Part shown: positions 1 through 34,589 of the stretch, one piece after another | Position numbering within the stretch: the first letter of the stretch is position 1 | How the letters are laid out: each line of letters opens with the position of its first letter | DNA from: a virus | Virus record (IMG/VR): IMGVR_UViG_3300027969_002881 | Location: 63,887 to 127,886 of that record | Strand: one strand, 5' to 3' | DNA length: 64,000 bases | Translations under genes and position numbers: made by a program | Notes under the pieces: model-generated | Told to the model about the DNA's origin: nothing | The model's input: the letters and a program-made list of their open reading frames with translations, nothing else | Databases searched by the model: none

Positions 1-415
1 ATACAATATCATAGTTATCACTGTTCAGCGTCAGTGATTCTTGCTGAAATATATTTTTAATTAAATTAAAGTTAGCACTTTTAGAGACATGTAGTTCCCA
101 TACTTGCCTAATAGTTAATTCTCTTGTCAATATTTTATCGCGAACATTTAAAATGTTTTCTCTTTGTCCATATAAAGAATCAACTTGCTCAGGATTATTC
201 ATAACGTCCCAAAAGAATTGTGCGTCCCATTTATCGCAAACGTCCAGAGTATGACTTGATTTCATGCCACTTAATATAGACAATGTACTTTTGCCAAAGG
301 CAGCACCCACTTCTAATATTCTGGTATTATCTGGTAATAATTTTACTAAGTTAGTAATTTGATCAGACTGTGTTTTGTTTATCCAGCCTGGGATATCATC
401 ATTTAATATCATCAT
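1..415 (-). CDS. Class I SAM-dependent methyltransferase, 3' end cut by the window edge (not in ORF track)
   Basis: Hand translation MMILNDDIPGWINKTQ...RILEVGAAFGKSTLSIL...LDVCDKW shows motif I (LEVGxxxG) and an acidic motif II; ATGA overlap with the upstream gene at 412-415. Confidence 0.75.
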   Translation of the reverse strand, partial: MMILNDDIPGWINKTQSDQITNLVKLLPDNTRILEVGAAFGKSTLSILSGMKSSHTLDVCDKWDAQFFWDVMNNPEQVDSLYGQRENILNVRDKILTRELTIRQVWELHVSKSANFNLIKNIFQQESLTLNSDNYDIV

Positions 416-1236
416 TTTTTAATTGTGGACATCATCGATAATCCACATTTCATAGTTACACCACTGGCAGGAAAGTTAACGCCTGCATGAGCTTGACAAC
501 GATCAAACACAATAATGCCGCCGCGCTTCCAGTTGTATACACCTTCTAATTCGAATCCTTCTAGCCACTTTTTATTAAAATGTCTAAAATATCTATTGTA
601 TATTTCATCGCTGATTGTTTGCCGATTCCAATCAACTTCCCAGATACTGCCATCACGTTTGTAGCATACTAAGTTATCATAATTGCGTACTGTATAGAAT
701 ACATTTGTATCATACTTAGGATCACCTTTAGCAAAGTTTGTTCCATACATTAGGAATCTGTTTTTAAAGATTGCTGTGCCGCAGTCTAATTCTGTGCTTT
801 CTCCTTTGTTCTTATCACAAACCCACAATGGGATAATAAACTGTTTTCCTGGAACACTGTTGCTGTCCTTTAATGTATTAGGATTACCTGTATCGATATG
901 CAAATTATAAGGCGTGGCCGTAATTAAAAAGTTACCTTCCCAAAGTGAGTCGTTGGTTAGTTCAGGAATAACTTCCTTTAATTTACCAAAAAATTTATCT
1001 TGAATGCGTTTATTATCTACATTGAAATGTAACGTTCCGTTGCGTTTAACTCTACGACTGCGATGTTCGCGATGCATTAAATCTTCTAACCAGACTAATT
1101 CTTCTTCATCAAAAACATTATCTACAGCATAGCTACTATCACTCCAGGTGCTCATCCACTTGAGATGTTCTGCAGAATCAACAGGGATAAATTCTTTTAC
1201 TAGATTATCTCCGTGTACGTATTCTAAATTAACCAT
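412..1236 (-). CDS. 2OG-Fe(II) oxygenase-superfamily protein
   Basis: HxD (NLHIDTG), FIIPL strand, distal His in IIVFDRCQAHAG. Confidence 0.6.
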   Translation of the reverse strand: MVNLEYVHGDNLVKEFIPVDSAEHLKWMSTWSDSSYAVDNVFDEEELVWLEDLMHREHRSRRVKRNGTLHFNVDNKRIQDKFFGKLKEVIPELTNDSLWEGNFLITATPYNLHIDTGNPNTLKDSNSVPGKQFIIPLWVCDKNKGESTELDCGTAIFKNRFLMYGTNFAKGDPKYDTNVFYTVRNYDNLVCYKRDGSIWEVDWNRQTISDEIYNRYFRHFNKKWLEGFELEGVYNWKRGGIIVFDRCQAHAGVNFPASGVTMKCGLSMMSTIKK

Positions 1237-1240
1237 GATA

Positions 1241-1996
1241 TTAATGTCCTTTTATGATATTTATTTGTTCTAAGATGTATTCTGCTAAAAATTTATAGGC
1301 ATGTTCGTCAAAATGCTTGCAGGAATATTGTTTAAAACCCGAATTCAATAAGAGTTGTGTCATGCCGAATGTACTGTCCCATGCATCTGCATATCTAATT
1401 ATGGGTAATTTTTTTCCTAATAAAGACATTTTGGGCAATACCTCTGGGTGTAATACAGTGGAAGTAAAAAAAGATTCTATATTTAAATCGTCTAGCACCG
1501 CCTTAAGAGAAAATAAACTGTTGCGTAAAATTTTTTCACTAAATATATCATCGTTAAAACTTTCGTAATGCATACGTACAAAGTCTGAGAATTTATGGTT
1601 AGTAAAGTCCAGGCACCACGAACCAATGCCGCCGGCTATAATTTCAGTATGTATAGTATCATAATGTAGTGGATCTTCTGGCACTATAGTCAATGTTCGA
1701 CCAGTATTATGATTGACTGGCAATTCAAATCTAGATAATTCTGATCCTGCAAAAATTACTAGATATTTTTCATTATGACTATACTCTTGCTCTAGATATT
1801 CATAGAGTACCCTAATTGAACGATAATTAGATCCTCCCGGTGCTCCTAAATTCACAGAAGTTTTAAAATTACCCGCTTTTTCTAATTGTCGAACCCAGCT
1901 TCTGTTATGGCAAGATTCTGCATTCAAATCATCTCCTAAATGACCGTATACAAAGCTATCACCAACTACAACAAGGGTTGTGTCATTGAATACCAT
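1241..1996 (-). CDS. SGNH/GDSL-like hydrolase or acyltransferase (copy 1 of 6)
   Basis: VVVGDSF block I, NLGAPGGSN block II, C-terminal CKHFDE His. Confidence 0.7.
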   Translation of the reverse strand: MVFNDTTLVVVGDSFVYGHLGDDLNAESCHNRSWVRQLEKAGNFKTSVNLGAPGGSNYRSIRVLYEYLEQEYSHNEKYLVIFAGSELSRFELPVNHNTGRTLTIVPEDPLHYDTIHTEIIAGGIGSWCLDFTNHKFSDFVRMHYESFNDDIFSEKILRNSLFSLKAVLDDLNIESFFTSTVLHPEVLPKMSLLGKKLPIIRYADAWDSTFGMTQLLLNSGFKQYSCKHFDEHAYKFLAEYILEQINIIKGH

Positions 1997-3389
1997 TGAA
2001 AATATCTTTCATTTCAGGAAACGTAGCATAGAAATCCGTGCCTCGCTGTTTATCCAAAAGTTCGATATATTCTTTCATTTCTGGTAAACGTACACTCCAG
2101 TCCTCGCTCTTAGCAAACTTGACCATACCGCGCAGACGTTCGATGCCATAGTCAGCGTTTAGCCACATCTCTTCAGTGACTTTGCCCTTATGCCATTCAG
2201 GGACACCTAGTTGCCAATTAGCTTTCCACCATGGAATAAATTCTTCATACTTGCGTTCAATTTCATCTTTAAACCATGCTGGCAATATTTTAACATTTAA
2301 GTGCGGTGGATGGTAAACAAAATGATAATTGATACCGCCTGCGCCAAATGGCCACATGTTAATCTTCTTAAAGCCGTGTTCAAGTTTCCATTTTAGGAAC
2401 TCTGGAATATAATAAATGTTTAATGCTTGTACTGCACAGGCAATAGAAACTTCTGTGTTAGATCCTGTTTCCTGATCTAACTGTCTAAATGCTTCCAAGT
2501 TTCTTCCCCATACACTTGGATAACGAATGTAATCATTTCTATCTTCGATGGCATCAACACTATAATGATAACGAACCAACTTAAAGTGACTCCACAATTC
2601 AAACAAGTCTTCACGCCATTCGACACCATTACTGTTGTATCGAATTTCCATGTCCTTGGCATAACCTCGTTTGATACATTCTTCGAGAATCATATAATGT
2701 TCTTCAATGATCAATGGTTCGCCACCTGCAAAATATAACTGTTTCATGTTAGGAATCTGTTCCCATAACTGTGTCCAGAACTCAGGATTGTTTTTATGCC
2801 AATTGTAACTAGCACCATTCTCTTTGCCTTTATTACCCCATTGCATTGTATCTTTGAGAGTTTCGTTTTTAATCTCTGGATACATTGTATTCCATTCAGG
2901 GACCCATAAACTGCTATCATGCGGGCTACACATTACGCAGGCCAGATTACATTTAGTACCAAAGCGCATGTCAATGTAAGCAATGTGCGGAGGAACTGAT
3001 CCATCTTCTTGTGTGTCTGCTAATAGCTTGTCAAGGTCGACACGTTCGCTCCAATATTTGGTTTCCCATTCACGCTTAGATTTATGGCCTTCTCGTTCTT
3101 CTTTATAACATTTAGTGCAACTAGCAGGTTCTTCCCCAGCAAGCATCTTAAGTCTAGTGTTTTTCATGTAGTCATTATTCCAACTACTTAGAAAGTCTGT
3201 GTGATTTAAGTTAGCAGGTTTGCCGTCGGCATTTTTCAGAATACCAACTTCTCCGCCATGGACTTTATCATTGGTTGCGCCCACTGAGCTGGCATTAGCA
3301 GTACAGCACACACGCATATGGCCATTGGGACGAGTGCTTAAATGTACCCATGGCAGGATGCAAAACGTTTTACTTATTTCTTTAGTCAT
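1983..3389 (-). CDS. Radical SAM protein with N-terminal twitch/SPASM domain
   Basis: FCILPW...RVCC...CTKCY auxiliary cluster motif, then CNLACVMC and FAGGEP. Confidence 0.9.
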   Translation of the reverse strand: MTKEISKTFCILPWVHLSTRPNGHMRVCCTANASSVGATNDKVHGGEVGILKNADGKPANLNHTDFLSSWNNDYMKNTRLKMLAGEEPASCTKCYKEEREGHKSKREWETKYWSERVDLDKLLADTQEDGSVPPHIAYIDMRFGTKCNLACVMCSPHDSSLWVPEWNTMYPEIKNETLKDTMQWGNKGKENGASYNWHKNNPEFWTQLWEQIPNMKQLYFAGGEPLIIEEHYMILEECIKRGYAKDMEIRYNSNGVEWREDLFELWSHFKLVRYHYSVDAIEDRNDYIRYPSVWGRNLEAFRQLDQETGSNTEVSIACAVQALNIYYIPEFLKWKLEHGFKKINMWPFGAGGINYHFVYHPPHLNVKILPAWFKDEIERKYEEFIPWWKANWQLGVPEWHKGKVTEEMWLNADYGIERLRGMVKFAKSEDWSVRLPEMKEYIELLDKQRGTDFYATFPEMKDIFNGIQ

Positions 3390-3410: not shown

Positions 3411-3713
3411 TTATATATTATTTTTATCTGCTCTATTTAATGCACTATCTGGATTTTCTGTACCACAAACCTTTAAACAAGTCTTAAACGGATCATCAGT
3501 TACCCAGCTTTGTTCTACTACAGCATACGCAGATTCAATTTGGTCTCGTGGATATGTGATAAACGCATGATCAAATTTGTCTCCCATGAATTCTTTTAGT
3601 GCTTCGTAGCGATTCTTGTCAGTGACTAACCAACAACACGGGGTTACTAGTCCTGTAAATTCTATAAAGGCACCAGGAAATTTTTTACAGTAAGGATTTA
3701 TTTTTGTAGTCAT
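3411..3713 (-). CDS. Stand-alone SPASM/twitch Fe-S binding domain
   Basis: YCKKF...GLVTPCCW...TCLKVCG matches the C-terminal domains of the neighbouring radical SAMs. Confidence 0.75.
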   Translation of the reverse strand: MTTKINPYCKKFPGAFIEFTGLVTPCCWLVTDKNRYEALKEFMGDKFDHAFITYPRDQIESAYAVVEQSWVTDDPFKTCLKVCGTENPDSALNRADKNNI

Positions 3714-4356
3714 TGAATTCTTTTTCTATTTCATTGAATGGTTTGGTGGTTGCCAACCAGGTATTTTCGTTGGTTTCATCTACTAGACTATGCTGTAGGA
3801 AAAATAAATCAAACCCCATAGTTTTACTTAGCTCATAACTTGATTTAATTGTATCTTGATTATAAGAAAATACCAAGTGTTTCCAATATATTTTTGGACC
3901 TGCGCCAAGTTGTTTTTTGTATTCGATACAGGTTCTAGCCGCGTTGCTCACATCATCCCATTTAGCGTTTATTCTATATTGGTTAAAATTATCGGGTGTG
4001 CCATCTATGCTGAATATTAATGTGTCGTTGGTATTCATCGACGACATCAATGATTGCCACCATTCAGTGCTTTTGCCACTGCCATTGGTATGTATCATGA
4101 TTACTAAATTAGCATCATTGTTCTTCAGTGACTGAATCAAACCCACAAGATCTTTTGAATATATTGGATCTCCCCAATTGCCACAAAATAATATTCTCTC
4201 AGGCTTAGCATCTATTAAGAACTTTTTAAAGTATTCAGTGTCTAGATCAAACATACTTTGAATGTATCTACCACCTACGCTAGTTCTTGCACATTCAGGA
4301 CATAACAGTCTACATCTGTTAGTTAAGCCCACATGTAAATCTTTAAAATTAAACAT
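3685..4356 (-). CDS. Radical SAM core lacking a C-terminal SPASM domain (start moved from 4380 to the ATG at 4356)
   Basis: CRLLCPEC, FCGNWGDP, HTNG, FSIDG. Confidence 0.85.
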   Translation of the reverse strand: MFNFKDLHVGLTNRCRLLCPECARTSVGGRYIQSMFDLDTEYFKKFLIDAKPERILFCGNWGDPIYSKDLVGLIQSLKNNDANLVIMIHTNGSGKSTEWWQSLMSSMNTNDTLIFSIDGTPDNFNQYRINAKWDDVSNAARTCIEYKKQLGAGPKIYWKHLVFSYNQDTIKSSYELSKTMGFDLFFLQHSLVDETNENTWLATTKPFNEIEKEFNDYKNKSLL

Positions 4357-4357
4357 A

Positions 4358-5422
4358 TTAAAGTACCTTATAATTTCCAATTGGAAGTTTTTCTAAATTC
4401 TTAACACTACAAACTTCTGTGCAACGATAAATTCTATCTTCTTTACCAAACCCATGTTCGGTTGATTTCCAACTTGCCACTAAATCATTGACATAAAATT
4501 CATGTTTCAATATATCACTTATACTGTTTTCACTGATATCATTCCATTTATCTGATCCATAAACTTCGTACAAACGTTTGAGTAGTATATCCATTTTACC
4601 TTGATCATTTGTAATCAAACCATTTTGCATAAAACAGCAGGGCCATAGTTTGCTGTCAAAACTAATAAAGTACATTTTCTTTTCTTTATTATTACAACAT
4701 ATATCGTTGTTTACTGTGTTTTTTAAGTTGTTATTAATATCAATCAATGATGACACTGGTATATGCCTATCTGCTATAGCGTTTTTACGCTGTTGCACTA
4801 CATCCAAGCCCAATGATGTAATCAAACTTCTATCATGTCTGCTGGCAAATTGACAAAAACCCATGTTAACACTGAGTTCTTTAGCCTGAGTTATTTGATG
4901 CTCATTCCATGGAAATATCAAATATTGCCAAAACGCTCTACCGCCTTCATTGATAAAAGTTTCTGCATTTTCCATGATCTTAGACCATGTGGTGTTTTGC
5001 CTATACAAATGGTTGGTGTCTTCTAAACCATCAATGCTGAATTTAAGCATATGATTATAATTCTTTTTTAACACAGCGGCTAATTTTTTCCAATATGCTA
5101 CATTACGCAAACTGGCATTTGTATGTATTATGATGTTATATCTACCAACTGTGCTGGCAAAATCTAAGAACTCTAGAAATTCAGGATGCATCAGCGGATC
5201 GTCGATTGTTCCGCAAAACTCTAATTCTTCTACAGTAGCAAACTCTGGTGCAGTTAAAATCTTTTTAAATACATCAAATGAAATATATTGTTTGTCTGGA
5301 ATTGAAAACTTCTTATTTAAAAACGTTCTGGCATCAGTTCTAACACAACCTAAACAAAGAGCATTACACATTGAACTTAGTTCAAATTGAAGTTTTGTTG
5401 GGCCTGTTAAATAATTATTCAT
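4358..5422 (-). CDS. Radical SAM/SPASM(twitch) protein
   Basis: CNALCLGC, CGTIDDP, HTNA, FSIDG; C-terminal C...WPCC...CTEVC. Confidence 0.9.
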   Translation of the reverse strand: MNNYLTGPTKLQFELSSMCNALCLGCVRTDARTFLNKKFSIPDKQYISFDVFKKILTAPEFATVEELEFCGTIDDPLMHPEFLEFLDFASTVGRYNIIIHTNASLRNVAYWKKLAAVLKKNYNHMLKFSIDGLEDTNHLYRQNTTWSKIMENAETFINEGGRAFWQYLIFPWNEHQITQAKELSVNMGFCQFASRHDRSLITSLGLDVVQQRKNAIADRHIPVSSLIDINNNLKNTVNNDICCNNKEKKMYFISFDSKLWPCCFMQNGLITNDQGKMDILLKRLYEVYGSDKWNDISENSISDILKHEFYVNDLVASWKSTEHGFGKEDRIYRCTEVCSVKNLEKLPIGNYKVL

Positions 5423-6375
5423 ATTTTTACCTTAGGTATCAATACGTCATTGGTACAGGTGCAATATTTAATTGTACATATCTCAGGAACTAACGCTGGC
5501 AATCCTTTAAAATCAATGATGTTACCAATTAGTTCGGCTTGGTTACAAGCACTTTTTCTAATATTTCCATAAGCATCAAGTAAGATGTGATTGATACCCA
5601 TTGTACATTCCCAACCAGTGAAAGTGTTCTTTAAATTATTAACATACTCAACTTCATCTAGATGCTCGACATGTCCATTGTCAAATTCTATAGAATTTTC
5701 TCCATAATAGTTATTTTCTGGTGGGGGGAATCCTGTTCCTTTAATTCCTAATCCACTATTAGCTTCTAACCATGCCAATTGTTCATTATTATATTCGTAG
5801 CTGGCATCACTTTGCTGACTTTCTCGTTTAAACACTCTACTAGGTTCTAATGTAATATCTTTAAAAGTTTTGAATCTCTCAAAAGCATCCTGTGATTTAG
5901 ACCACAGTGGCGGATACATAAGTGTAAATACTCCTACATTTGTTTGTGTGCCAATGTATTCGACTTTTTCGAATATACTGTCATCTACACTTTCTGGATG
6001 GTAACTGATAGTTACTTTGTAAATTTTTTTAGCATAATCTTTCCACCAATCTAAGCTTCGGCTGCCATTTGTGTTAACATATAAACACCAACCCTTTTCA
6101 TTACAAAACTCAATGATTGTTTCTAGACTAGGACTAATTGTAGGCTCGCCACCATTTAAAAAGATGTGTACGCTACGGCCGTGTAATTGTTCTGCTAATT
6201 TAATTAGAAAATCTTTTATAATTTTCGGATCTTCTAATTTATTTTTTAGAACATTTACTCCACGATGCAACAATTCAGGGCAGTAACTACAGTGATAAGT
6301 GCAAAGACTATTAATAGTCCAGTCCAAGACGAATCGATTGACTTCATTGTATATTTTAATAGGGTTCATTATCAA
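5419..6375 (-). CDS. Radical SAM/SPASM(twitch) protein
   Basis: CTYHCSYC, NGGEP, NTNG; C-terminal WECTMG...SAC...CTIKYCTC. Confidence 0.9.
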   Translation of the reverse strand: MIMNPIKIYNEVNRFVLDWTINSLCTYHCSYCPELLHRGVNVLKNKLEDPKIIKDFLIKLAEQLHGRSVHIFLNGGEPTISPSLETIIEFCNEKGWCLYVNTNGSRSLDWWKDYAKKIYKVTISYHPESVDDSIFEKVEYIGTQTNVGVFTLMYPPLWSKSQDAFERFKTFKDITLEPSRVFKRESQQSDASYEYNNEQLAWLEANSGLGIKGTGFPPPENNYYGENSIEFDNGHVEHLDEVEYVNNLKNTFTGWECTMGINHILLDAYGNIRKSACNQAELIGNIIDFKGLPALVPEICTIKYCTCTNDVLIPKVKI

Positions 6376-26888: not shown

Positions 26889-27550
26889 ATTAATCTAATA
26901 TCTCTTAAGAATAATTTTATTTTCCTAGCTAGTTCAGCATGTGCTTCTTCGTTGGGGTGATACCCATCTTTACATTTCATATCTTTTTCTGTGCAATAAA
27001 CATTGAATATAGATTTATCATGTCCCAATACAAATTTCTTTGTAGGTAGTAATTTAATTAAATTCTTGTATTGATCTTCAAATGGTTCTCTGTCTAAGTA
27101 GCCTTCTAAGAACGAGTTAACAAATGCATACTGTATATTTCTAGATTCTAGGAAAGATGATACAAAGATTTGTTGCATGTAATATTCCATTAGGCCTTCA
27201 TAGTCATTATACATGTGTTCATACCACACATCTTTCATTTTTTTAAGATATGGTTCGTAAGGATCATGACCCAGTAATACATTTTCCCATATTTTCTTTT
27301 CTGGAAAATAAACTGCTGTGCGTGAAATACCAGTCCAGGAAAACACAACTAATGTTTTTTCGGGATTAGGTATATCAGCATAATCGTTCAGCAAATTTAT
27401 TATGCTGAGTTTATTCGATCCGCCTGGTATACCTCTATTGGTCACTGGCGTTTTCATTAATTCACCTAGTTTGGCAGGCCAGGCGTCGCTGTTTGCTACT
27501 CCATCGCCAGCTGTAAAGCTGTCTCCATATGCATAAATCTTATCGATCAT
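26885..27550 (-). CDS. SGNH-like protein (copy 6)
   Basis: AYGDSFTAG, NRGIPGGSN, KDGYHP. Confidence 0.8.
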   Translation of the reverse strand: MIDKIYAYGDSFTAGDGVANSDAWPAKLGELMKTPVTNRGIPGGSNKLSIINLLNDYADIPNPEKTLVVFSWTGISRTAVYFPEKKIWENVLLGHDPYEPYLKKMKDVWYEHMYNDYEGLMEYYMQQIFVSSFLESRNIQYAFVNSFLEGYLDREPFEDQYKNLIKLLPTKKFVLGHDKSIFNVYCTEKDMKCKDGYHPNEEAHAELARKIKLFLRDIRLI

Positions 27551-28985: not shown

Positions 28986-30555
28986 CTTTGTTAACTACCT
29001 TTTGTTTCATCTCTTTACAGATGTTATAAAATTCTGTGTACTCTGGATATACTTCTAAAAAGTTCGTACCATAGCGACGATCTAAATCATTGACAAAGTC
29101 ATAGAACTTGGCACGATTTAGTGCAAAATCTTTATTGCCTTCCAAATCATTTTTAGAATTGTAAGTGATATTCAAACATACACGCTTGAACTTTTCCAGC
29201 TCGAACTCTTCAAAAGCATGATGCATTTTCCAAGTCTTAACTTGTGTGGTATGATCCGCCATGTAGTTGATACTTGGTATCAAATACTCTTGAATAAGAT
29301 CTTTACTGGCCCATTGTGCATCTAAGAACGTGGGGTTGCGTAAATAAGGTAAGTCAATGCCATTGATACTAGGATGACTTGTAGTCTTTTTATCTCTATC
29401 TGTGTACGACTCTCCTGGCCAAGCAAAGTTAAAACCTGTTTCTTTTTCCCACATTTTTGCAATTGTTGGATTGGGGTTATATTTCTTTCTAAGTTCAAGC
29501 TGCCACTCAAATAATTTTTGTATGCTGGAAATACTCAGAATGTTAAACGTAACCATTGTGGTAATTCTAATATTGCCCATTTGCATGATTTGTTCGTAAC
29601 GCTTGCAGAACTTTTCAAAGTCCAGGCCTGGGCGTAAGTATTCAGCACGTTCACCCCAACCATCGACACTGGTAAAGATAGTTAGTTTCTTAATATAGTT
29701 ACCACGACTTAAAATCTCAGCACGTTCAATGAACTTGTCCCACAACTTATCAGGTACGCCCAAGTTAGTATTAATACTAAGTTCGAGTTCTGGATTCGGA
29801 TTATCAATAAACCAATCCATACTTTTATATGTTTCTTTACTTAACAGTGGCTCGCCACCTGTAATACGAAACACATGTAAGTGTTTGTAAGCTTCAGGCC
29901 ACCATTTCCAAAATGCGTCAATATAAGGATTGAATTCGTTGTTCTTATAACTTAAACTATCTAAGTCGGGTTGCCAGCCCTGTGCCCATACGGTATGATC
30001 TGTATTTTCCAACAACTTAACTGGACCATTTTGTTTTAGTTCTTCTACCCACTTGCTACTGTACTCAGGGCCACAGTATACGCATTTAAAGTTACATACA
30101 TTACTAAAGTCTACTTCGAGATAGCTTGGGTAAAAGTCTTTGTTAGGATCACTGGCTTGAACTTCATCATGCTTTTCTAATGCCCATGGTTCTAAACTCT
30201 TGTAGAATCTATCACTGGGACTTTTGTTATCTTCAACACGCCAGCAGTAGTCACATTCACTTGGGCGTTGACCTTCCAACATTTCTTTTCTAGCTTGTTT
30301 AAGTATACTGGTATTAAACAATGCTCCTGGATTCTTTTGTATTTCTGCCAATGGAATCTTATGTGGCACTGGATGGTGACAACTGTGTGTCATTCCTGTA
30401 CCCAGGTGCATGGTAACTTGTGTAAACTTTGCCAAGCAAAAACCTGGACCAGTGCTGTCTAATAGTTCTTTTGTTTTGTCAATATTTGGTCCTGTACGAG
30501 CAACTTTATTATCATATCCGATATCCCAATTGATATCGCTGAGTTTCTTTTTCAT
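28978..30555 (-). CDS. Radical SAM protein with N-terminal twitch domain
   Basis: FCLAKF...SCH...ECDYCW, CNFKCVYC, ITGGEP. Confidence 0.9.
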   Translation of the reverse strand: MKKKLSDINWDIGYDNKVARTGPNIDKTKELLDSTGPGFCLAKFTQVTMHLGTGMTHSCHHPVPHKIPLAEIQKNPGALFNTSILKQARKEMLEGQRPSECDYCWRVEDNKSPSDRFYKSLEPWALEKHDEVQASDPNKDFYPSYLEVDFSNVCNFKCVYCGPEYSSKWVEELKQNGPVKLLENTDHTVWAQGWQPDLDSLSYKNNEFNPYIDAFWKWWPEAYKHLHVFRITGGEPLLSKETYKSMDWFIDNPNPELELSINTNLGVPDKLWDKFIERAEILSRGNYIKKLTIFTSVDGWGERAEYLRPGLDFEKFCKRYEQIMQMGNIRITTMVTFNILSISSIQKLFEWQLELRKKYNPNPTIAKMWEKETGFNFAWPGESYTDRDKKTTSHPSINGIDLPYLRNPTFLDAQWASKDLIQEYLIPSINYMADHTTQVKTWKMHHAFEEFELEKFKRVCLNITYNSKNDLEGNKDFALNRAKFYDFVNDLDRRYGTNFLEVYPEYTEFYNICKEMKQKVVNKDV

Positions 30556-30564
30556 ATTTTGCCT

Positions 30565-31548
30565 TTAATTTATGCTGTTATCTACTTGGCTCTCTTTGAC
30601 CAGAGCACCTAACCTTGGAGGGTTAATAAAACTCTCCTTAAACATTCTACTGCCATTGGCATCCAATTCTGCAACCTCTAAGTTTAATTTTGTTCTTAAT
30701 TCTTGACCGAATTTGTAAATTTCTTTTTTTAGTTTTTCAGAATCATAGTTCCAGCCTGTGGCATTACATCTGCCGCCTTCTCCTTTGAACTGGGGTTGAA
30801 TACTTTCTTTCCAGAAGTTATCATGCCAGTCAAAGTCTCTACAATCCGTAAAATCAAAACTGTCTTTAGCAAGATTAGTTAAGTAAGCGCCAAGTCTAGT
30901 GCCGAACATTGCCCAGGCGCCGTTCTCCACATCGGCTCCAACACTACTCCAAACTAAGAATCTTTTATAATTGCGTTCATGTACTTGTTCTTTTAAACGT
31001 CTAGGGTCAACAGTTACACCGCCATTAAGCAACAGCTTAACGCCTTCACGAAATCCTGCTCTATATGCTTGATATGCACTGGCATTATTATGTACATCAC
31101 AGTAAATATTATTCATTTGGAAATAATAAATGTCCCAACAGAAATCAACTTTTGCTTTTGGATCATCTGCATTTTCGTGAGTACGCATTTGTTCTACTAC
31201 ATGCTTGGGCCACATCTTAATGCCGCCGTTACCGTATACCAATCCGTTGATTGCGTTTTTACCGGCCCAACTGACAATATCATGATGACCAATTTTACTC
31301 ATATCTAATTCAAGACCAAAGAAATCATCACGAACAATGTTATCTGCATCAATGGTAATGAAGCGATCTGTTTCAGCCACTCTTGCGGCTTCCTTGTGTG
31401 CATTATCAAACCCCTTAACACCATGTACACGTTTGGCCCATGGGGCTTTTTCTAATAGGTTTGCATAATTCTTATCTGCATTTGGTTCATCGTAACTTAA
31501 AAATACGATATCAAAACTGGTAATAGGTACTGACATTTGCGTCCTCAA
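30565..31548 (-). CDS. GT-A-like glycosyltransferase, LSYDEP family
   Basis: FLSYDEPNADKN, RVHGVKGFDNAH, TIDAD, NGLVYGNGGIKMW, FREGVKL. Confidence 0.65.
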   Translation of the reverse strand: MRTQMSVPITSFDIVFLSYDEPNADKNYANLLEKAPWAKRVHGVKGFDNAHKEAARVAETDRFITIDADNIVRDDFFGLELDMSKIGHHDIVSWAGKNAINGLVYGNGGIKMWPKHVVEQMRTHENADDPKAKVDFCWDIYYFQMNNIYCDVHNNASAYQAYRAGFREGVKLLLNGGVTVDPRRLKEQVHERNYKRFLVWSSVGADVENGAWAMFGTRLGAYLTNLAKDSFDFTDCRDFDWHDNFWKESIQPQFKGEGGRCNATGWNYDSEKLKKEIYKFGQELRTKLNLEVAELDANGSRMFKESFINPPRLGALVKESQVDNSIN

Positions 31549-32476
31549 TATGTAAATGGTGATAATTTGAAATTATCTTAACAGGTGTCTTTGATTTTAA
31601 TGTTAATTCGACTAGTTTAAAATCATCTAATTCGTTTGTATTTAAAGTTATACTATCTAAAATTTGACTAGGATCATTGCTGTCAAAGACATAAAATGTT
31701 ATTTCTTTGTCCAAATTAAAATTTTGAGTTCCTCTCATAGCACTTTGAATTTGTAGCTTGTTACCCGTTTGTTTATACACTAATAAAGGTTTAAAACCTA
31801 CTGTTGCAATCGGAACGTAATACGGCTCTTTATCTATACTAACCTTAAAGTCATGATTATAATGTAAAAATCCTAGATTGTCAAATTTTATATGTTCATT
31901 AGGTAACCATTTGCAGGGGAAAGTCTGGGCATGATTGGAAAATAGTTCTTTAATGTTTAATTCGAGTGTATCATACAACCTACTGGGCTCTTTTTTGTCT
32001 ATACAAAAAATTTCCATTTTATCAGGCATGTTTTCCAATTGAAATTCTGTTGTGTTTTCTTTTGTATATTCTTGCTTAAAATTATCATAGATAAAATTAA
32101 CGTTGATCTTTTTAGTAATTAAGTCACAATGTAAGTGGATAAAGTTATCTCCATCTGTTTCACCATAGACGTAATCAAATTCCCACCGTCTGCGATCTTG
32201 ATGCTTGTATAAAATTCTTGATTCTGAATCATGATCATATTTTATTCTTAATTTATGTAATGGTGACTTATTATAAAATATTTCTTTAATAAGGTCGTTT
32301 TCTTCAATTTCTAAAGTAGTACGGCGTGGGTCCTCATTGAGAACATTATGTGGAGATACTCCTAATACTTGATATGTTAATTTGTCATACTCAACATAAA
32401 ATTTACTATTCTTAATTTTTTTCTTTTTAAGAATAGTCTTTTGGATGTCAAATTCATCATCATTGATATTATTCAT
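31511..32476 (-). CDS. Hypothetical protein
   Basis: 321-aa ORF coupled to its neighbours; no recognised motif. Confidence 0.75.
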   Translation of the reverse strand: MNNINDDEFDIQKTILKKKKIKNSKFYVEYDKLTYQVLGVSPHNVLNEDPRRTTLEIEENDLIKEIFYNKSPLHKLRIKYDHDSESRILYKHQDRRRWEFDYVYGETDGDNFIHLHCDLITKKINVNFIYDNFKQEYTKENTTEFQLENMPDKMEIFCIDKKEPSRLYDTLELNIKELFSNHAQTFPCKWLPNEHIKFDNLGFLHYNHDFKVSIDKEPYYVPIATVGFKPLLVYKQTGNKLQIQSAMRGTQNFNLDKEITFYVFDSNDPSQILDSITLNTNELDDFKLVELTLKSKTPVKIISNYHHLHIEDANVSTYYQF

Positions 32477-33316
32477 TTAAATAAATTTTTTTCTTAGGTT
32501 AGTCAGTGTGTCGGTGGTTAACCATGCACCAGTGCTATATTTAACTAAACCTAATTGAACATAATTTTCAATTTTTATATCACCTTGATCATTTACCCAA
32601 TATGATAAAAATTCAGACCATGGTTTTTTTGACCATTGATCGTTAACATAACTATTTTCTCTAATGCTTAGATCAATTAAATTAACAAAGTCAAACTTTG
32701 TTATTTTGAGTCCAAGTATTTTGTACATCAATGACATTAACCATTCTGGCCAAATATATTGCGGAAACGGAGGCATGGCATTATTTTCTTTATCTTCAAA
32801 AAAATCAATAAATTCATTTTGATTATAATGTGATGAAATTAACACTGCCATGCCAAACACATAGTCACAGCCTTTGTCCTTGTTAAAATATATTGCATCT
32901 ATTATCGATCCTTCTCCAAAACTTTTTTGTTCAACGGATCCTTCAGTATATAAGGAATAATCTAACAATTCTCCATTAAAATTAGATCTAGTTTTTGGCA
33001 TAACAATACTGTTCATGCCTCTTAAATTTTCCCATACATCTACGTTGAAGTTAGTTAAAATCTGATCGGGATTAAATGCAATAGTATTTGTATACGGGCT
33101 TGCTAATAAAGAATGAAAATACGTCGATGCTATAACCTCAGAAGGTTCTAAATAAATTTCTTGATCGATATACAATAAATATTTTTTTAGATTATCTTCG
33201 TGTGCTATAATACTAATAGGCCGTTCTTTGTCAAACAGCCTAATACTCTTGATCAACAGTTCAACCTGTGTCAAGTTTTTTATTTTACAATCAACTATTA
33301 AATAGCCTTCATTCAT
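32477..33316 (-). CDS. Divergent nucleotide-diphospho-sugar transferase-like protein
   Basis: LLASPYTNTIAFNPD aligns with KSPYNKTLMIDVD of the adjacent gene; DxD is degenerate. Confidence 0.45.
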   Translation of the reverse strand: MNEGYLIVDCKIKNLTQVELLIKSIRLFDKERPISIIAHEDNLKKYLLYIDQEIYLEPSEVIASTYFHSLLASPYTNTIAFNPDQILTNFNVDVWENLRGMNSIVMPKTRSNFNGELLDYSLYTEGSVEQKSFGEGSIIDAIYFNKDKGCDYVFGMAVLISSHYNQNEFIDFFEDKENNAMPPFPQYIWPEWLMSLMYKILGLKITKFDFVNLIDLSIRENSYVNDQWSKKPWSEFLSYWVNDQGDIKIENYVQLGLVKYSTGAWLTTDTLTNLRKKFI

Positions 33317-34205
33317 ATATCATTTGTTTTATTTTAGGGTAATGTCTTAAAATAGCCATCTTATTCATGACATGGACATTTTCATTTTTAACTCTACTGG
33401 CAATGTTTTTCCATAGTTCTTTAGGATCAGGACAAACTAAAATCATATCATTGATTTCTTTGAAGTCTGCTATATCGTCGATTTGTTCACTGAAGCGCAT
33501 GACTTTACCCGGAAGCTCATGAATTAAATTACCTTGTCTGTGTCCATTTAAAATGTGTACAGCAATACTTACAGCATAGTCGGTTCGAAATAGCACACCC
33601 GGGAACTTATATAACCATTTGTAATAGTTATAATTTTCCTTTACGTGTTCCCATACTCCAAAGAATAGCTTGGCTAGTTCGCTGTCGCTTCTCCAGTATA
33701 CAGCCGTTGACCACCACATGTCGACGCCATCTGGATGTAGTTTCTGTTCCCAAATACGAGGTTTATAATTTCGAACACTCATTGCATGTTTGTACATAGC
33801 AACTTCGCTGTCTGTGTCAAAAATAGCATCTAACGTGTCATTGCCAATCAAATAGTCAACGTCGATCATTAATGTTTTGTTATAAGGACTTTTAGCAAAA
33901 ATACTGTGCTTATTTTTATTATTAAATTGCGTGGTAAATTCATTCCATGGACTGTCACGATGTGTTCGTGTATTACGTTCGTGCGTTACGTTGTCAATGA
34001 TAATGTGATTAAAAGTTTTAGCCGCGAGATCCGGAGTTAGTTCTGACTGTAATGAATCGAAAGTTGGTTGATCGGTTAACAAAGTTACATGATTGTTATT
34101 CATATGCAACTTAACACATCTAGCCGCAACTAATGCTAGTTTTTCATAATCAATTTTTCCGTTGTTATAGGCAATAAGCAATATGCCAGAATCAAATTTA
34201 CTCAT
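33309..34205 (-). CDS. Nucleotide-diphospho-sugar transferase (GT-A, GT8-like)
   Basis: GILLIAYN, SPYNKTLMIDVDY (DxD), WWSTAVYW, FRTDYAVSIA. Confidence 0.65.
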   Translation of the reverse strand: MSKFDSGILLIAYNNGKIDYEKLALVAARCVKLHMNNNHVTLLTDQPTFDSLQSELTPDLAAKTFNHIIIDNVTHERNTRTHRDSPWNEFTTQFNNKNKHSIFAKSPYNKTLMIDVDYLIGNDTLDAIFDTDSEVAMYKHAMSVRNYKPRIWEQKLHPDGVDMWWSTAVYWRSDSELAKLFFGVWEHVKENYNYYKWLYKFPGVLFRTDYAVSIAVHILNGHRQGNLIHELPGKVMRFSEQIDDIADFKEINDMILVCPDPKELWKNIASRVKNENVHVMNKMAILRHYPKIKQMIYE

Positions 34206-34563
34206 TTAAGCCAACCAACCCTTTAGTGTCCCGTTGTTTTTTAAGCTTTTCATTTTCCACGTAATATTCGTTTAATGCTTCTGTGTAAGCACTGAAAAGT
34301 TTTTCGTGGAATTCTTTGATGTCAGTAACCAGTACTGGGTTTTCGTTATCGTCTAAAAATATATAACGCTCAACGTTCATATCCAATAGTTGTTTAACAA
34401 AATTAAGTAATTCTATTTTCGCCGTAAACAGTGAACTCATGTAACCAATGGTTAACATAGTGTTCATACGTTGTTTAAGATTCAGCTTTTGGTTGTTTAG
34501 TGTTAACCTATAGTTACTAAATTCCAAAGCCGCTTTAAGTTTATCGTCCATCCAGAGCTCCAT
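34198..34563 (-). CDS. Hypothetical phage protein
   Basis: 121-aa helical ORF (KAALEFSNYRLTLNNQK); late promoter upstream. Confidence 0.75.
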   Translation of the reverse strand: MELWMDDKLKAALEFSNYRLTLNNQKLNLKQRMNTMLTIGYMSSLFTAKIELLNFVKQLLDMNVERYIFLDDNENPVLVTDIKEFHEKLFSAYTEALNEYYVENEKLKKQRDTKGLVGLNE

Positions 34564-34581
34564 TATGTGCTATTTTAATTT

Positions 34582-34589
34582 TATTTATA
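34582..34589 (-). promoter_or_regulatory. T4 late promoter consensus TATAAATA at the head of the tailoring cluster
   Basis: Exact consensus in a 52-nt gap, 18 nt upstream of the ATG at 34563. Confidence 0.65.

Follow-up and report, generated by a model that had tools for sequence, protein, structure and literature searches.

A modular fibre-side block of sugar-building and tailoring genes in a freshwater jumbo myophage, with a possible role in virion decoration

Introduction

What does a jumbo phage do with dozens of overlapping radical SAM, SGNH, glycosyltransferase-like and NDP-sugar genes placed directly behind its tail fibres, and on which acceptor would their products act? The window analysed here, a 64,000-nt stretch of a viral record (IMGVR_UViG_3300027969_002881, positions 63,887 to 127,886), comes from a freshwater Rak2/GAP32-like jumbo myophage. 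A first-pass annotation had read its first ~34 kb as one late, cytoplasmic pathway building a branched, methylated, carbamoylated or acylated, radical-SAM-modified glycan on virion proteins, and as the best candidate for an undescribed system.

Results

The 37 co-directional minus-strand ORFs, mostly overlapping, tile window positions 2-34563 (Table 1), in agreement with the roughly 37 genes first described over 1-34589 and with enzyme counts near those claimed. The single ~34 kb cluster needs revision, however, since the block continues 15.4 kb past the window start, to about window position -15397, and is modular. As a whole it spans about 50 kb, with roughly 53 genes and 16 radical-SAM-like genes, and window 1-34563 is the larger share of it. 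Module 1, the head adjoining the fibres, opens with p121 and a glycogenin-like GT-A; two proteins without assignment, a further GT-A and a radical SAM enzyme of the N-terminal-twitch type complete it. Module 2 is a conserved cassette predicted to serve a branched deoxysugar. It contains three NDP-sugar SDRs and an FkbM-RmlC fusion, a minimal ThDP enzyme split over two genes, p139 and one SGNH protein, together with two or three GT10-like transferases of GT-B fold. In module 3 the tailoring enzymes stand in arrays, radical SAM and SGNH proteins beside methyltransferase-like and oxygenase-like ones, and module 4 pairs a microprotein with an O-carbamoyltransferase.

Table 1. Features of the block and its fibre-side flank, in window coordinates; all lie on the minus strand.
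Position	Feature	Support
2-415	Class I methyltransferase-like (weak)	Pfam Methyltransf_24 E 0.006, below cut-off
412-1236	Possible 2OG/Fe oxygenase, 274 aa, virus-only family	HxD...H motif by eye
1241-1996	SGNH-like hydrolase (GDS type)	Weak DUF6071; N-terminal VGDSF motif
1983-3389	Radical SAM, N-terminal twitch family	NF033640 420 bits; Pfam Radical_SAM
3411-3713	100-aa Cys-motif piece
3685-4380	Short radical SAM core (231 aa)	Pfam Radical_SAM 26 bits
4358-5422	Radical SAM (SPASM/twitch-like generic)	phrog_21308 E 1e-22
5419-6375	Small radical SAM (STM4011/viperin/QueE-like, weak)	Pfam Radical_SAM 31.5 bits
6356-7549	Radical SAM, divergent N-terminal twitch type	NF033640 154 bits, just below cut-off
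7515-8294	SGNH-like (GDS type)	Motif only: YGDSF at N-terminus
8291-9466	Radical SAM with C-terminal Cys-rich domain	Pfam Radical_SAM 31.4 bits
9466-10323	Candidate Rossmann/methyltransferase-like protein	Homolog of RsoM2USA_347; tblastn match to one related locus
10310-11023	Family A GT-A-like glycosyltransferase	Paralogy, invariant DxD
10998-12023	Family A GT-A-like glycosyltransferase (modelled member)	AF2 pLDDT 83
11995-12744	Family A GT-A-like glycosyltransferase	Paralogy, DxD
12769-14241	NodU/NovN/TobZ-type O-carbamoyltransferase	Pfam Carbam_trans_N 119 bits, Carbam_trans_C 181 bits
14238-14381	Unannotated 47-aa microprotein	Conserved C-terminal tail ...ELR(K/R)RDPF(I/V)Y
14387-14394	Late-promoter-like motif TATAAATA	5 nt before microprotein start
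14397-14939	ThDP enzyme beta-like subunit (pyrimidine-binding domain only)	Pfam Transket_pyr 30.8 bits
14941-15801	SGNH-like (GCS type)	Motif only: AGCSFTWG, DLHPS; in 28 loci
15798-16217	p139, helical, virus-only	Highly conserved, up to 96% identity across loci
16214-17149	NDP-sugar SDR (GalE/4,6-dehydratase-like)	Pfam Epimerase 118 bits; NCBIfam
17146-18150	NDP-sugar SDR (GDP-fucose-synthase-like)	Pfam Epimerase 160 bits; NCBIfam
18140-19126	NDP-sugar SDR (GDP-fucose-synthase-like)	Pfam Epimerase 121 bits; NCBIfam
19111-20556	Family B GT-B-fold, GT10-like transferase (modelled member)	AF2 pLDDT 90
20534-21943	Family B GT-B-fold transferase	38% identical to 19111-20556
21928-22557	ThDP enzyme alpha-like subunit (minimal, 209 aa)	Pfam E1_dh 50.9 bits
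22567-23820	FkbM methyltransferase fused to RmlC-type 3,5-epimerase	Pfam; TIGR01444 above cut-off; rmlC 114 bits
23817-25253	Family B GT-B-fold transferase	Paralogy
25231-26004	SGNH-like (GCS type)	Motif only; in 15 loci
26001-26888	SGNH-like (GCS type)	Weak DUF6071, motifs
26885-27550	SGNH/DUF6071 hydrolase	Pfam DUF6071 35 bits, above cut-off
27540-28985	Radical SAM, N-terminal twitch family	NF033640 286 bits
28978-30555	Radical SAM, N-terminal twitch family	NF033640 310 bits; ortholog of RsoM2USA_349
30565-31548	Family A GT-A-like transferase	Ortholog of RsoM2USA_350
31511-32476	321-aa protein
32477-33316	279-aa protein, possible ninth GT
33309-34205	GT8/glycogenin-like GT-A candidate	Ortholog of RsoM2USA_353
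34198-34563	p121, small helical protein opening the block	Ortholog of RsoM2USA_354
34582-34589	Late-promoter-like motif TATAAATA	18 nt before p121
34616-37841	Three fibre-like genes directly upstream of the block	PHROG tail-fibre matches
38484-50482	2844-aa virion structural protein and 1155-aa baseplate wedge	phrog_10938, phrog_10646

The PHROG matches bear out the placement of the cluster directly behind fibre and baseplate genes, and the block shares its transcription direction with the baseplate, giant structural protein (the structural genes being Rak2/GAP32/Atu_ph07-like) and fibre genes that precede it. The product of the fibre gene at 36882-37841 ends in a fibre-type C-terminus and the gene is preceded by an ATAAATA of its own, and the gene at 35710-36882 carries a (GY)n tract confined to close relatives. 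Synteny extends to the cultured Ralstonia jumbo phage RsoM2USA, in which the order fibre, p121, GT8-like, further genes, GT-A and radical SAM recurs, and in which the head module follows a baseplate wedge, a giant virion protein confirmed by MS, and fibres. The same head-module order was found in six further loci at 25-42% identity. Two close relatives retain the entire arrangement, and the order GT-A, N-twitch radical SAM, GT-B, cassette recurs in many loci.

None of the glycosyltransferase-like genes has a Pfam match. They include two unannotated paralog families, one of four genes modelled as GT-A with an invariant DxD (family A) and one of three modelled as GT-B (family B). A structural search of these families, named beforehand as a possible refutation of the glycan reading, points to transferase folds: all top Foldseek matches of the family A model (10998-12023) are GT-A (B4GALNT1: VIA Z 10.9, rmsd 3.1, 147 aligned), and all those of the family B model (19111-20556) are GT-B. 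The latter model, however, is equally close to fucosyltransferases (FucT 2nzx, VIA Z 11.0) and to the T4 DNA glucosyltransferases (BGT 10.9, AGT 10.5), which counts against a virion-protein acceptor. With 33309-34205, whose D115/D117 are invariant and whose 19 profile matches in the PDB are all glycogenin (best E 0.03, weak, spanning the DxD region), eight of the roughly nine transferases claimed are supported by fold or profile; 32477-33316 is a possible ninth. The neighbouring 31511-32476 has no Pfam or PHROG match and no homolog in the related loci.

Pfam and NCBIfam recover the three SDRs, the RmlC (as the FkbM fusion), both ThDP subunits and the carbamoyltransferase expected from the first reading. 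The ThDP beta-like gene occurs in 58 of 77 related loci, and an Atlas search with p139 yields solely viral hypothetical clusters. Family B was confirmed in at least 501 of 600 matched stretches of a viral collection. Across 185,579 prokaryote species genomes it turned up at just 11 loci, of which several are short, low-GC MAG contigs with cassette genes. The core cassette is common in uncultured phages and nearly absent from cells.

The window's eight radical SAM genes (seven by Pfam, 4358-5422 by PHROG) match the count first given, and three or four are of the NCBIfam N-terminal-twitch type (NF033640 cut-off, 170 bits). Those at 3685-4380, 4358-5422 and 8291-9466 are paralogs. The 3411-3713 piece overlaps 3685-4380 by 29 nt, its G.V.PCCW motif aligns with residues 297-309 of the paralog 8291-9466, and it probably represents the C-terminal portion, bearing the auxiliary cluster, that has split off from the upstream radical SAM gene 3685-4380. 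Support for the other tailoring enzymes is uneven. Among six proposed SGNH proteins one has a clear Pfam match (26885-27550), two have weak matches and three were recognised by motif (GDS/GCS with DxxH-like); 7515-8294 has a paralog at genome 49040-49753. For the three proposed methyltransferase domains FkbM is solid, but 2-415, the N-terminal 138 aa of a 210-aa ORF crossing the window start (genome 63669-64301), and 9466-10323 (best PDB profile match MJ0882, E 0.6) are weak. The putative oxygenase at 412-1236 keeps its motif but has no match in Pfam, PHROG or the PDB, and its Atlas lead is DUF6445 (14% share).

The carbamoyltransferase matches NovN in the PDB (E 6e-85), and its gene is ATGA-coupled to that of the microprotein, a conserved gene missed in the earlier gene reading. 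A complex model of the two scored 0.78 against 0.00 for the best control, and docking into the enzyme is predicted for the microprotein, in which one Tyr is invariant. The pair also occurs between primase and helicase in phages without sugar genes, so that the carbamoylated glycan once proposed is weakened; enzyme and microprotein form a two-gene module of their own. About half of the related loci lack the microprotein, as does RsoM2USA, where the carbamoyltransferase lies ~90 kb from the head module. In most loci the microprotein's neighbour is the carbamoyltransferase, not a GT or radical SAM gene.

As first noted by eye, membrane machinery is absent from the cluster. A Kyte-Doolittle scan detected no TM-like segment in any cluster ORF, and no block ORF had a Pfam match to a flippase, polymerase or initiating transferase. 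Bac_transf and NTP_transferase were found neither in the record, itself about 35% complete, nor in two relatives (48% and 65% complete) or RsoM2USA. Across 79 related loci, just 7 of 1578 proteins have at least three TM-like segments; all seven are short (109-204 aa) and lack a match among the proteins of the window's block. These observations support a predicted soluble, cytoplasmic set of sugar-building and tailoring enzymes. The sole hydrophobic stretch among cluster ORFs is a Rossmann strand-helix in the SDR 16214-17149. We would like to note that many O-antigen transferases lack TM segments and are also soluble, and the absence of such segments is therefore compatible with action on host lipid-linked intermediates.

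The motif TATAAATA and the TAAATA cores lie where they were first placed, at the cluster head (34582), at 14387, and in intergenic gaps at about 12753 and 3395. In the window overall TATAAATA is depleted (4 observed, 12.45 expected). In the 128 kb record, 13 of 23 copies of ATAAATA precede a start on their own strand by 0-45 nt, where 0.6 would be expected. This predicted late promoter precedes one fibre gene (36882-37841) and four block genes, three of them within the window (p121, the microprotein and, at 21 nt, 412-1236). Sigma-70-like sites and terminators occurred at chance level only. In the related phages CBB and GAP32, which have a gp55-like sigma factor, ATAAATA stands before structural genes (PMC5259590), and the block is predicted to carry the lineage's late-promoter motif, as do the structural genes upstream.

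Discussion

We tentatively favour, at somewhat less than an even chance, a late cytoplasmic pathway that decorates virion proteins, probably the fibres. What we infer of its sugar chemistry, timing and acceptor is as follows. Since the phage has no nucleotidyltransferase, the pathway would start from a host NDP-hexose, which would be dehydrated and epimerised, receive a two-carbon branch from the ThDP enzyme, and be reduced and methylated. Soluble transferases would place this and other sugars on the acceptor in the cytoplasm late in infection, and radical SAM and SGNH enzymes would afterwards tailor the product. The likeliest acceptor would be a protein of the virion surface, with the fibre proteins, whose genes lie immediately upstream, as prime candidates. 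Of the first-pass proposal, the soluble set of sugar enzymes, the fibre adjacency, the predicted late motif and the transferase folds are supported by the sequence. Carbamoylation and the picture of one pathway are weakened, the latter because the block is a mosaic of modules found separately elsewhere. Also against virion proteins, no acceptor motif conserved across lineages was found, and in other lineages the cassette adjoins a terminase or a cytidylyltransferase-domain giant protein, not fibres. The low completeness of the record (about 35%) further tempers the reading.

The strongest rival, unlikely but credible, is remodelling of the host envelope, in which the soluble enzymes would act on undecaprenyl-linked O-antigen or capsule intermediates and host flippase and ligase would carry the altered glycan out, for example to block superinfection or to keep progeny from sticking to debris. 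RmlC- and Fcl-type deoxysugar genes are typical of O-antigen loci, the solubility of many O-antigen transferases fits, and the literature interprets in this way both the glycosyltransferase and radical SAM cassettes of the pelagimyophage 'host recognition cluster' (PMC7029224) and cyanophage LPS genes (PMC12801897). However, initiating transferase, flippase, polymerase and ligase are absent from the block and three related records, the predicted promoter motifs are late rather than early, and the same cassette gene order occurs in phages probably infecting very different hosts. The near absence of family B, the hallmark transferase family, from cellular genomes further argues against its having been copied from O-antigen loci of hosts.

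Rather unlikely is that the block is no single pathway and that a hypervariable dumping ground behind the fibres has collected independent mobile cassettes with separate substrates, namely the cassette for the deoxysugar, the radical SAM arrays and the microprotein-carbamoyltransferase pair. The pair's occurrence beside replication genes, the head module standing alone in RsoM2USA, loci with the cassette alone, internal promoter motifs at 14387 and 1258, and pelagimyophage relatives differing by radical SAM cassette gain or loss (PMC7029224) would all fit. Nevertheless, genes overlap tightly even across module borders, the GT-A to cassette order is widely shared, and the two close relatives preserve the full arrangement.

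Slightly more doubtful still is a glycopeptide- or oligosaccharide-type metabolite, peptide-linked (possibly on the microprotein) or free, instead of virion decoration. The enzymes recall the toolkits with which actinomycetes make oligosaccharides and aminoglycosides (NovN/TobZ-type carbamoyltransferase, E1-like ThDP pair, FkbM, twitch/SPASM radical SAM), the peptide S-glycosyltransferases SunS and ThuS are among the structural neighbours of family A, the block has a glycogenin-like GT, and the microprotein is predicted to dock. Against this, no exporter, immunity gene or peptidase was found in the block, and the patchy distribution of the microprotein and its usual neighbour do not fit. DNA hypermodification, in which the transferases would glycosylate modified phage bases and the remaining enzymes would tailor the sugar thus attached, is very improbable despite the T4-like fold of family B and the pair's place within some replication modules, as a thymidylate-synthase-type hydroxymethylase is absent from the record and two relatives (48% and 65% complete), the block is linked with late motifs and fibre genes, not with replication genes, and at least eight transferases and 16 radical SAM genes exceed, to our knowledge, any known DNA glycan.

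Virion decoration thus remains our preferred, tentative reading. The case for an undescribed system is weakened because similar fibre-side cassettes were reported earlier: pelagimyophages carry glycosyltransferase and radical SAM cassettes beside their fibres, read there as modifying the host O-chain (PMC7029224).

Extent of the block and identity of the phage

The window forms the last 64 kb of a record of 127,886 bp (CheckV completeness 35%). By ORF listing, 37 minus-strand ORFs tile positions 2-34563, most of them overlapping by a few bases, and the layout of the whole record shows the same-strand block running 15.4 kb past the window start, to genome position 48489. This continuation (genome 48489-63886) holds eight more radical SAM genes. 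A plus-strand insert inside the block (genome 55840-60101) has its own ATAAATA at its start and contains a 687-aa fusion protein with an N-terminal-twitch radical SAM ("N-twitch") part.

The genes upstream of the block encode a gp5-like hub, a 1155-aa baseplate wedge, a 2844-aa virion protein and fibre-like proteins. The nearest relatives of the baseplate wedge are those of Atu_ph07, SCTP-2, GAP32, PA5oct and CBB, which are Rak2-like jumbo myophages. Near-identical DNA was found in freshwater and lake metagenomes from several studies, and megablast of 18 kb against GenBank phages gave no match. A paper on a "moraphage" was set aside, as it concerns a different lineage. An HNH homing-endonuclease-like gene lies between the baseplate wedge block and divergent plus-strand genes.

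Radical SAM and sugar enzymes

Pfam, PHROGs and NCBIfam agree on almost every item of the enzyme list drawn up in the first-pass annotation. The eight radical SAM genes reported for the window were all recovered, seven via Pfam and the eighth via PHROGs, for which it was the single match over 20 unannotated ORFs. The NCBIfam model NF033640 (N-terminal-twitch radical SAM; whole-protein curated cut-off 170 bits) gave 16 radical-SAM-like matches in the whole record, nine of them above the family cut-off, and all-against-all BLAST grouped 14 + 2 radical SAM genes over the ~50 kb block. For Pfam PF04055 (Radical_SAM) the gathering score is 29.5 bits, and the window's genes fall on both sides of it (see table). 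A search for papers on the function of the N-terminal-twitch family found none.

Within 3411-4380, a 231-aa radical SAM gene and a 100-aa ORF share an overlap of 29 nt; the pair resembles a split or frameshifted copy of the 354-391-aa paralogs, since the small ORF carries the G.V.PCCW auxiliary-cluster motif. The clusters of two related loci (L013 4162-6402 and L068 13955-16210) include ~745-aa radical SAM proteins of a B12-binding, class B methyltransferase-like type, of which the window has none. In another phage (L080 18187-19257), IscA-like and NifU-like Fe-S assembly genes lie near the deoxysugar cassette, which would suit a need to load radical SAM clusters.

Features of the block and of the adjoining virion genes (window coordinates), with counterparts in the cultured Ralstonia jumbo phage RsoM2USA
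Feature	Coordinates	Strand	Score or remark	RsoM2USA
Candidate 2OG oxygenase	412-1236	-		
N-twitch radical SAM	1983-3389	-	NF033640 420 bits, above cut-off; PF04055 gathering score reached	
Small ORF of split radical SAM pair	3411-3713	-	100 aa	
Radical SAM of split pair	3685-4380	-	231 aa; PF04055 match under gathering score	
Radical SAM	5419-6375	-	PF04055 gathering score reached	
Radical SAM	6356-7549	-	NF033640 154 bits, under cut-off; PF04055 match under gathering score	
Radical SAM	8291-9466	-	PF04055 gathering score reached	
Candidate methyltransferase	9466-10323	-		ORF347
Family A, GT-A-like	10310-11023, 10998-12023, 11995-12744, 30565-31548	-	Invariant D86 and D88	ORF350, ORF348
Carbamoyltransferase	12769-14241	-	Pfam domains 119 and 181 bits, both above cut-off	
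Microprotein	14238-14381	-	47 aa	
p139, small cassette protein	15798-16217	-		
Family B, GT10-like	19111-20556, 20534-21943, 23817-25253	-		
N-twitch radical SAM	27540-28985	-	NF033640 286 bits, above cut-off; PF04055 match under gathering score	
N-twitch radical SAM	28978-30555	-	NF033640 310 bits, above cut-off; PF04055 gathering score reached	
N-twitch radical SAM				ORF349
GT8/glycogenin-like gene	33309-34205	-	Invariant D115 and D117	ORF353
p121, first gene of block	34198-34563	-		ORF354
Fibre-like protein with (GY)n tract	35710-36882	-	Tract at residues ~235-275	
Fibre gene	36882-37841			
HNH homing-endonuclease-like gene	51161-51739	-		

The sugar enzymes named in the first-pass annotation are likewise present: three NDP-sugar SDRs, two of them nearest to GDP-fucose synthase (Pfam, NCBIfam); RmlC, as an FkbM-RmlC fusion; a 209-aa E1-alpha-like and a 180-aa E1-beta-like ThDP subunit; and a carbamoyltransferase of the NodU/NovN/TobZ type. 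The RmlC domain scores 113.8 bits in Pfam, above the cut-off, but 114 bits against the TIGR01221 equivalog cut-off of 155.75, so we take it as a member of the family and as a candidate dTDP-4-dehydrorhamnose 3,5-epimerase. The six SGNH proteins fared unevenly, with one clear in Pfam, two weak, and three recognized on N-terminal GDS/GCS and C-terminal DxxH-like motifs alone. For the candidate 2OG oxygenase, phmmer against the PDB gave no match and the Atlas only a DUF6445 lead with a 14% share, and the best PDB match of the candidate methyltransferase has an E value of only 0.6. Of the three methyltransferase domains in the first-pass annotation, the second and third are thus putative, like the oxygenase. 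For p139, the Atlas returned viral hypothetical clusters only.

The ThDP alpha subunit aligns to profile positions 8-169 of 300, the beta subunit consists of the pyrimidine-binding domain only, and Pfam found no pyruvate dehydrogenase E2 or E3 partner among the cluster ORFs. A pyruvate dehydrogenase E1 was rejected on the minimal size of both subunits and the absence of E2/E3 from the cluster. By analogy, the split enzyme is one that would work like the sugar-branching type.

Two putative viral glycosyltransferase families

The first-pass annotation had counted about nine glycosyltransferase-like genes, a claim that required testing because none of them has a Pfam match. Eight candidates are now backed at the fold or profile level. 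For family B (three genes), every top Foldseek PDB match of the AlphaFold model (pLDDT 90) is a GT-B glycosyltransferase. In VIA alignments the H. pylori alpha-1,3-fucosyltransferase (2nzx; Z 11.0, rmsd 4.9, 273 aligned), T4 beta-glucosyltransferase (Z 10.9) and FUT9 were tied at the top. An invariant block, E357, T358 ... E372, K373, resembles the GT10 donor motif FxxxFENSxxxxYxTEK, by eye only. Family B shares the GT-B fold with GT10 fucosyltransferases and T4 DNA glucosyltransferases, and by eye its SETSF...FFSEKTF block recalls the GT10 motif; in contrast to them, it has an extra N-terminal region of ~100 aa and is an essentially viral family. No Pfam family, Glyco_transf_10 included, matched it at E 0.01, no PDB sequence matched with profiles A1 or A3, and tblastn against GenBank phages found nothing.

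Family A (four genes) has an invariant DxD and a model with a GT-A fold (pLDDT 83). Its Foldseek and VIA neighbours include B4GALNT1 (Z 10.9), STIV A197, WrtF, Mimivirus R699, PBCV-1 A64R and two peptide S-glycosyltransferases, ThuS and SunS. Scores almost as good came from IspD-type nucleotidyltransferases, which have this fold too, so that the model supports a GT-A fold and transferase activity stays putative. The window's four proteins gave no Pfam GT2 match; among more than 6000 homologs, a few carry PF00535 or PF13641.

PDB sequence and profile searches with both families returned nothing meaningful, and hhalign of 14 unannotated ORFs against the two family profiles detected no relation. 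The profile of the GT8/glycogenin-like gene and its relatives matched only glycogenins in the PDB, weakly (E 0.03-0.7), across the nucleotide-binding/DxD region. Structural search had been proposed as one way to refute the GT-like families as transferases; the neighbours that Foldseek and VIA returned are GT-B and GT-A enzymes.

A microprotein coupled to the carbamoyltransferase

A 155-nt gap at 14242-14396 was found to hold an unannotated ORF of 47 aa. It starts 5 nt past TATAAATA, and its stop overlaps the start of the carbamoyltransferase gene in an ATGA. The last 16 residues have the consensus KK(R/K)(L/I)xEL(R/K)KRDPF(I/V)Y, after which come 0-3 residues; 37 of 79 related loci contain this tail, each a single time. 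Its 30 distinct nucleotide versions keep R-D-P-F and the final Y throughout while using all synonymous codons, which argues that selection acts on the protein. A 30-nt degenerate pattern of the tail, with less than one chance match by estimate, retrieved at least 120 viral contigs from IMG/VR. Among the matches listed, the gene directly downstream is a carbamoyltransferase in 44 of 111 loci, and the one directly upstream in 10. In one phage group the pair has a Toprim primase on one side and a DnaB helicase on the other, and sugar genes are absent. Various enzymes, among them GatZ/KbaZ-like, HAD-like and cytidylyltransferase-like ones, also carry the tail as a C-terminal fusion. In RsoM2USA an SGNH-like gene takes the place ahead of the carbamoyltransferase, and the microprotein is absent there. 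A ribosome-arrest leader peptide was set aside, because different genes follow the microprotein, a variable 0-3 residues separate the motif from the stop, and full enzymes bear the tail at their C-termini.

Complex prediction for the microprotein and the carbamoyltransferase scored 0.78, compared to 0.00 for the best control. Of 80 solved complexes 58 attained this score, as did 2 of 110 mismatched pairs; the alignments were made for this analysis, so these calibration counts apply only approximately. The runs agree in at least 64% of contacts (partner pLDDT at least 63) and place tail residues 42-47 against carbamoyltransferase residues 10-11, 71-76, 127-128, 158-172 and 213-230, in the N-terminal half and next to the invariant H11, D126 and H214. 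The prediction supports binding of the microprotein to this half of the enzyme, as a subunit, docking tag or substrate.

The enzyme itself has full-length homology to NovN (PDB E 6e-85) and does not reach the NodU equivalog cut-off of NCBIfam. While the gene is confirmed, the carbamoylated glycan that the first-pass annotation had read from it is weakened by the microprotein module, which is also found in loci without sugar genes; given this pairing and module context, the glycan may not be a substrate of the carbamoyltransferase at all.

Distribution and gene order

An IMG/VR scan with the family B profile gave at least 501 confirmed matches among the 600 stretches listed. Cassette content was assessed by tblastn of the window's proteins against 77 loci drawn from the family B matches listed. 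The conserved core comprises ThDP beta (58 loci), the SDRs (49-67), ThDP alpha (53), FkbM-RmlC (49) and N-twitch radical SAM (~50); p139 is present in 24, with identity up to 96%. Gene maps show a recurrent order: GT-B, FkbM-RmlC, ThDP alpha, GT-B, SDR3, SDR2, SDR1, p139, SGNH, ThDP beta. A prokaryote genome collection of 185,579 species yielded only 11 family B loci, several of them short, low-GC MAG contigs carrying cassette genes; true bacterial contigs, from Caulobacter and Azospirillum, carry distant copies only. Given this scarcity, the cassette is essentially viral, and its frequency in IMG/VR together with its near absence from cells points to a common, unstudied viral function in lakes and oceans.

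Linkage to the fibre genes

The only cultured phage found to carry family A together with N-twitch radical SAM is RsoM2USA. There, a mini-version of the block's head (ORF347-354) follows the baseplate wedge (ORF362), the giant protein (ORF361) and the fibres, with fibre and baseplate genes spanning ORF355-362; ORF361 has been confirmed in virions by mass spectrometry (PMC8504454). The order fibre, p121, GT8-like, two unknowns, GT-A, radical SAM recurs in six further related loci (L005, L059, L068, L073, L161 and L188); in L188, the protein upstream of the p121-type order is an esterase plus Ig-domain protein. A second small group in RsoM2USA (123467-130403, locus L202; ORF199-204), far from its fibre module, comprises an N-twitch radical SAM gene (ORF202), an SGNH-like gene of the GCS type (ORF200) and a carbamoyltransferase (ORF199).

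The deoxysugar cassette of other lineages has different neighbours, namely the terminase and a giant protein with a cytidylyltransferase domain. The synteny across jumbo phages that the first-pass annotation had proposed to check therefore splits: the adjacency of head module and fibres recurs, whereas the link does not extend to every module. In a third lineage, represented by L086 (895-5271), L162 (6407-11914) and L091 (3613-5865), the cassette is followed by proteins of 750-1835 aa with a cytidylyltransferase-like domain, which occupies the N-terminus of the two largest and lies inside the 750-aa protein. Further on are a pair of small genes and the gene for the large terminase.

One of the fibre-like proteins contains a (GY)n-NCYD-(GY)n tract with ~18 tyrosines, then a Ser/Thr/Pro-rich stretch. 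As the glycogenin-like gene lies ~1.5 kb downstream, the tract might be a site of tyrosine modification or cross-linking. It is kept in two close relatives with varying repeat number and is absent from the other related loci and RsoM2USA; as a conserved acceptor it was rejected, being confined to these three phages.

A predicted late-promoter motif

The motif noticed at the head of the cluster, TATAAATA/ATAAATA, indeed precedes p121. TATAAATA is rarer in the window than expected (4 versus 12.45). ATAAATA occurs 23 times in the 128 kb record, and 13 of the 23 sit 0-45 nt upstream of a same-strand start, compared to 0.6 expected from random placement (maximum 4 in 300 trials), an arrangement of the kind expected for a T4-type late transcription unit. 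It precedes a fibre gene and four block genes: p121, the microprotein, the candidate 2OG oxygenase and one outside the window. In the related phages CBB and GAP32, ATAAATA stands ahead of structural genes, and a gp55-like sigma factor is present (PMC5259590). Scans for sigma-70-like promoters and intrinsic terminators were at chance level. From the placement of the motif, we reasonably infer that the block would be expressed late.

Starting sugars and export

No cluster ORF has a TM-like segment, and Pfam matched no flippase, polymerase or undecaprenyl-phosphate initiating transferase among them, as the first-pass annotation had judged by eye; Bac_transf is absent from four records. These results, with no transporter match, also led us to reject a surface polysaccharide pathway of the Wzx/Wzy or ABC type. 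Searches of the record, of two close relatives (completeness 48% and 65%) and of RsoM2USA turned up no initiating phosphoglycosyltransferase and no sugar-1-phosphate nucleotidyltransferase. The pathway must thus begin from host NDP-sugars, without an export route of its own, and the block is self-contained only in part.

Proposed pathway and acceptor

What the analysis establishes directly is which genes are present, their folds, their synteny, where the motif lies and that membrane machinery is lacking; around this a pathway can be proposed. A host NDP-hexose would be converted to an NDP-4-keto-6-deoxyhexose and epimerised, then gain a two-carbon branch, be reduced and be methylated. GT10-like enzymes would transfer the branched deoxysugar, GT-A enzymes would add more sugars, twitch-type radical SAM enzymes would tailor the product, and SGNH proteins would add or remove acyl groups. 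The sugar chemistry is drawn from the established enzymology of YerE/AviB-type ThDP enzymes, RmlC, Fcl-type reductases and FkbM O-methyltransferases. Among characterised twitch-type radical SAM enzymes, BtrN and others oxidise carbons of carbohydrates, and some catalyse epimerisation at such carbons.

Late motifs, the conserved adjacency of head module and fibres, the lack of export machinery and the viral nature of the key families lead us to favour virion proteins, chiefly the fibres, as the acceptor, tentatively and at somewhat less than an even chance. Remodelling of the host envelope is unlikely; the "host recognition cluster" of pelagimyophages and cyanomyophages, with its glycosyltransferases, deoxysugar genes and radical SAM cassettes, has been read as host O-chain modification (PMC7029224). 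The block is modular and widespread, and we regard it as quite unlikely that it is a mosaic of unrelated cassettes. A peptide or small-molecule product, with peptide S-glycosyltransferases among the family A neighbours, appears improbable. DNA modification is the least probable reading, T4 beta-glucosyltransferase being a family B neighbour but a hydroxymethylase-type enzyme missing from three partial records.

A more specific and highly doubtful proposal is a tyrosine-primed glycoconjugate. Its acceptor would be a tyrosine, either the invariant one in the microprotein tail or one in the (GY)n loop of the fibre-like protein, with a glycogenin-like start on Tyr and extension with the C-branched deoxysugar by the viral transferases. 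The N-twitch array would rewrite the glycan at unactivated carbons, and the microprotein tail would dock in the carbamoyltransferase as substrate or carrier. If true, a virus would here be equipping its own particle with a peptide-scaffolded, radical-SAM-tailored glycan.

Should virion proteins prove to be the target, the block would represent by far the most elaborate phage glycosylation system known. It would combine up to 16 radical SAM enzymes with a rare-sugar synthesis of its own, and would bear on how phages recognise hosts, evade defences and can be engineered. The block also reveals three uncharacterised families: GT10-like family B, the N-twitch radical SAM proteins and the microprotein-carbamoyltransferase pair. 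RsoM2USA, being cultured and having the head module, could serve for first experiments.

Comparison with known systems

In YerE (yersiniose) and the E1-like pairs AviB1/AviB2 and AlmDI/DII, a ThDP enzyme adds a two-carbon branch to an NDP-4-keto-6-deoxyhexose, and the bacterial genes sit beside a 3,5-epimerase, ketoreductases and a methyltransferase. The ThDP pair of the block appears similar in having the same kinds of enzymes alongside; it differs in its minimal subunits (209 and 180 aa), a beta subunit without the C-terminal domain, and genes 7 kb apart. Similarly, the carbamoyltransferase shares full-length homology and both Pfam domains with NovN, GdmN and TobZ, whereas here it is translationally coupled to a conserved microprotein predicted to bind its N-terminal half. 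We know of no such partner for the characterised O-carbamoyltransferases.

Giant viruses (PBCV-1 A64R, Mimivirus fibril glycans) offer a parallel in that the virus encodes enzymes which, independently of membranes, make rare methylated sugars and attach them to structural proteins, and A64R and Mimivirus R699 are structural neighbours of family A at the fold level only (Z about 9). Those are, in contrast, eukaryotic viruses, and their glycosylation is not known to involve radical SAM arrays.

In the Che8-type system, phage-encoded cytoplasmic glycosyltransferases decorate virion proteins late in infection, according to the account of Freeman et al. 2023 cited in PMC12619734. The block likewise encodes putative cytoplasmic transferases, the virion target here being a proposal. 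Unlike Che8, which reportedly uses few transferases and host sugars, with capsid and tail-tube C-termini as acceptors, the block has at least eight candidate transferases, its own deoxysugar synthesis and radical SAM tailoring.

Another close description is that of the pelagimyophage "host recognition cluster" (Zaragoza-Solas et al. 2020, PMC7029224), also a large hypervariable region past tail fibres and a giant structural protein. HTVC008M and many cyanophages have homologs of the carbamoyltransferase. The present phage differs in being Rak2/GAP32-like, from fresh water, and in having far more radical SAM genes. The earlier cluster was described by annotation alone, and family B, p139 and the microprotein were not recognized there. 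Particle glycosylation in phages and giant viruses is already known, as are, by annotation, glycosyltransferase/radical SAM cassettes beside myophage fibres (PMC7029224). New here are the fold-level support for two putative viral transferase families, a cassette that is restricted to viruses and constant in gene order, the size of the N-twitch radical SAM array, the synteny with a cultured phage, and the microprotein-carbamoyltransferase module.
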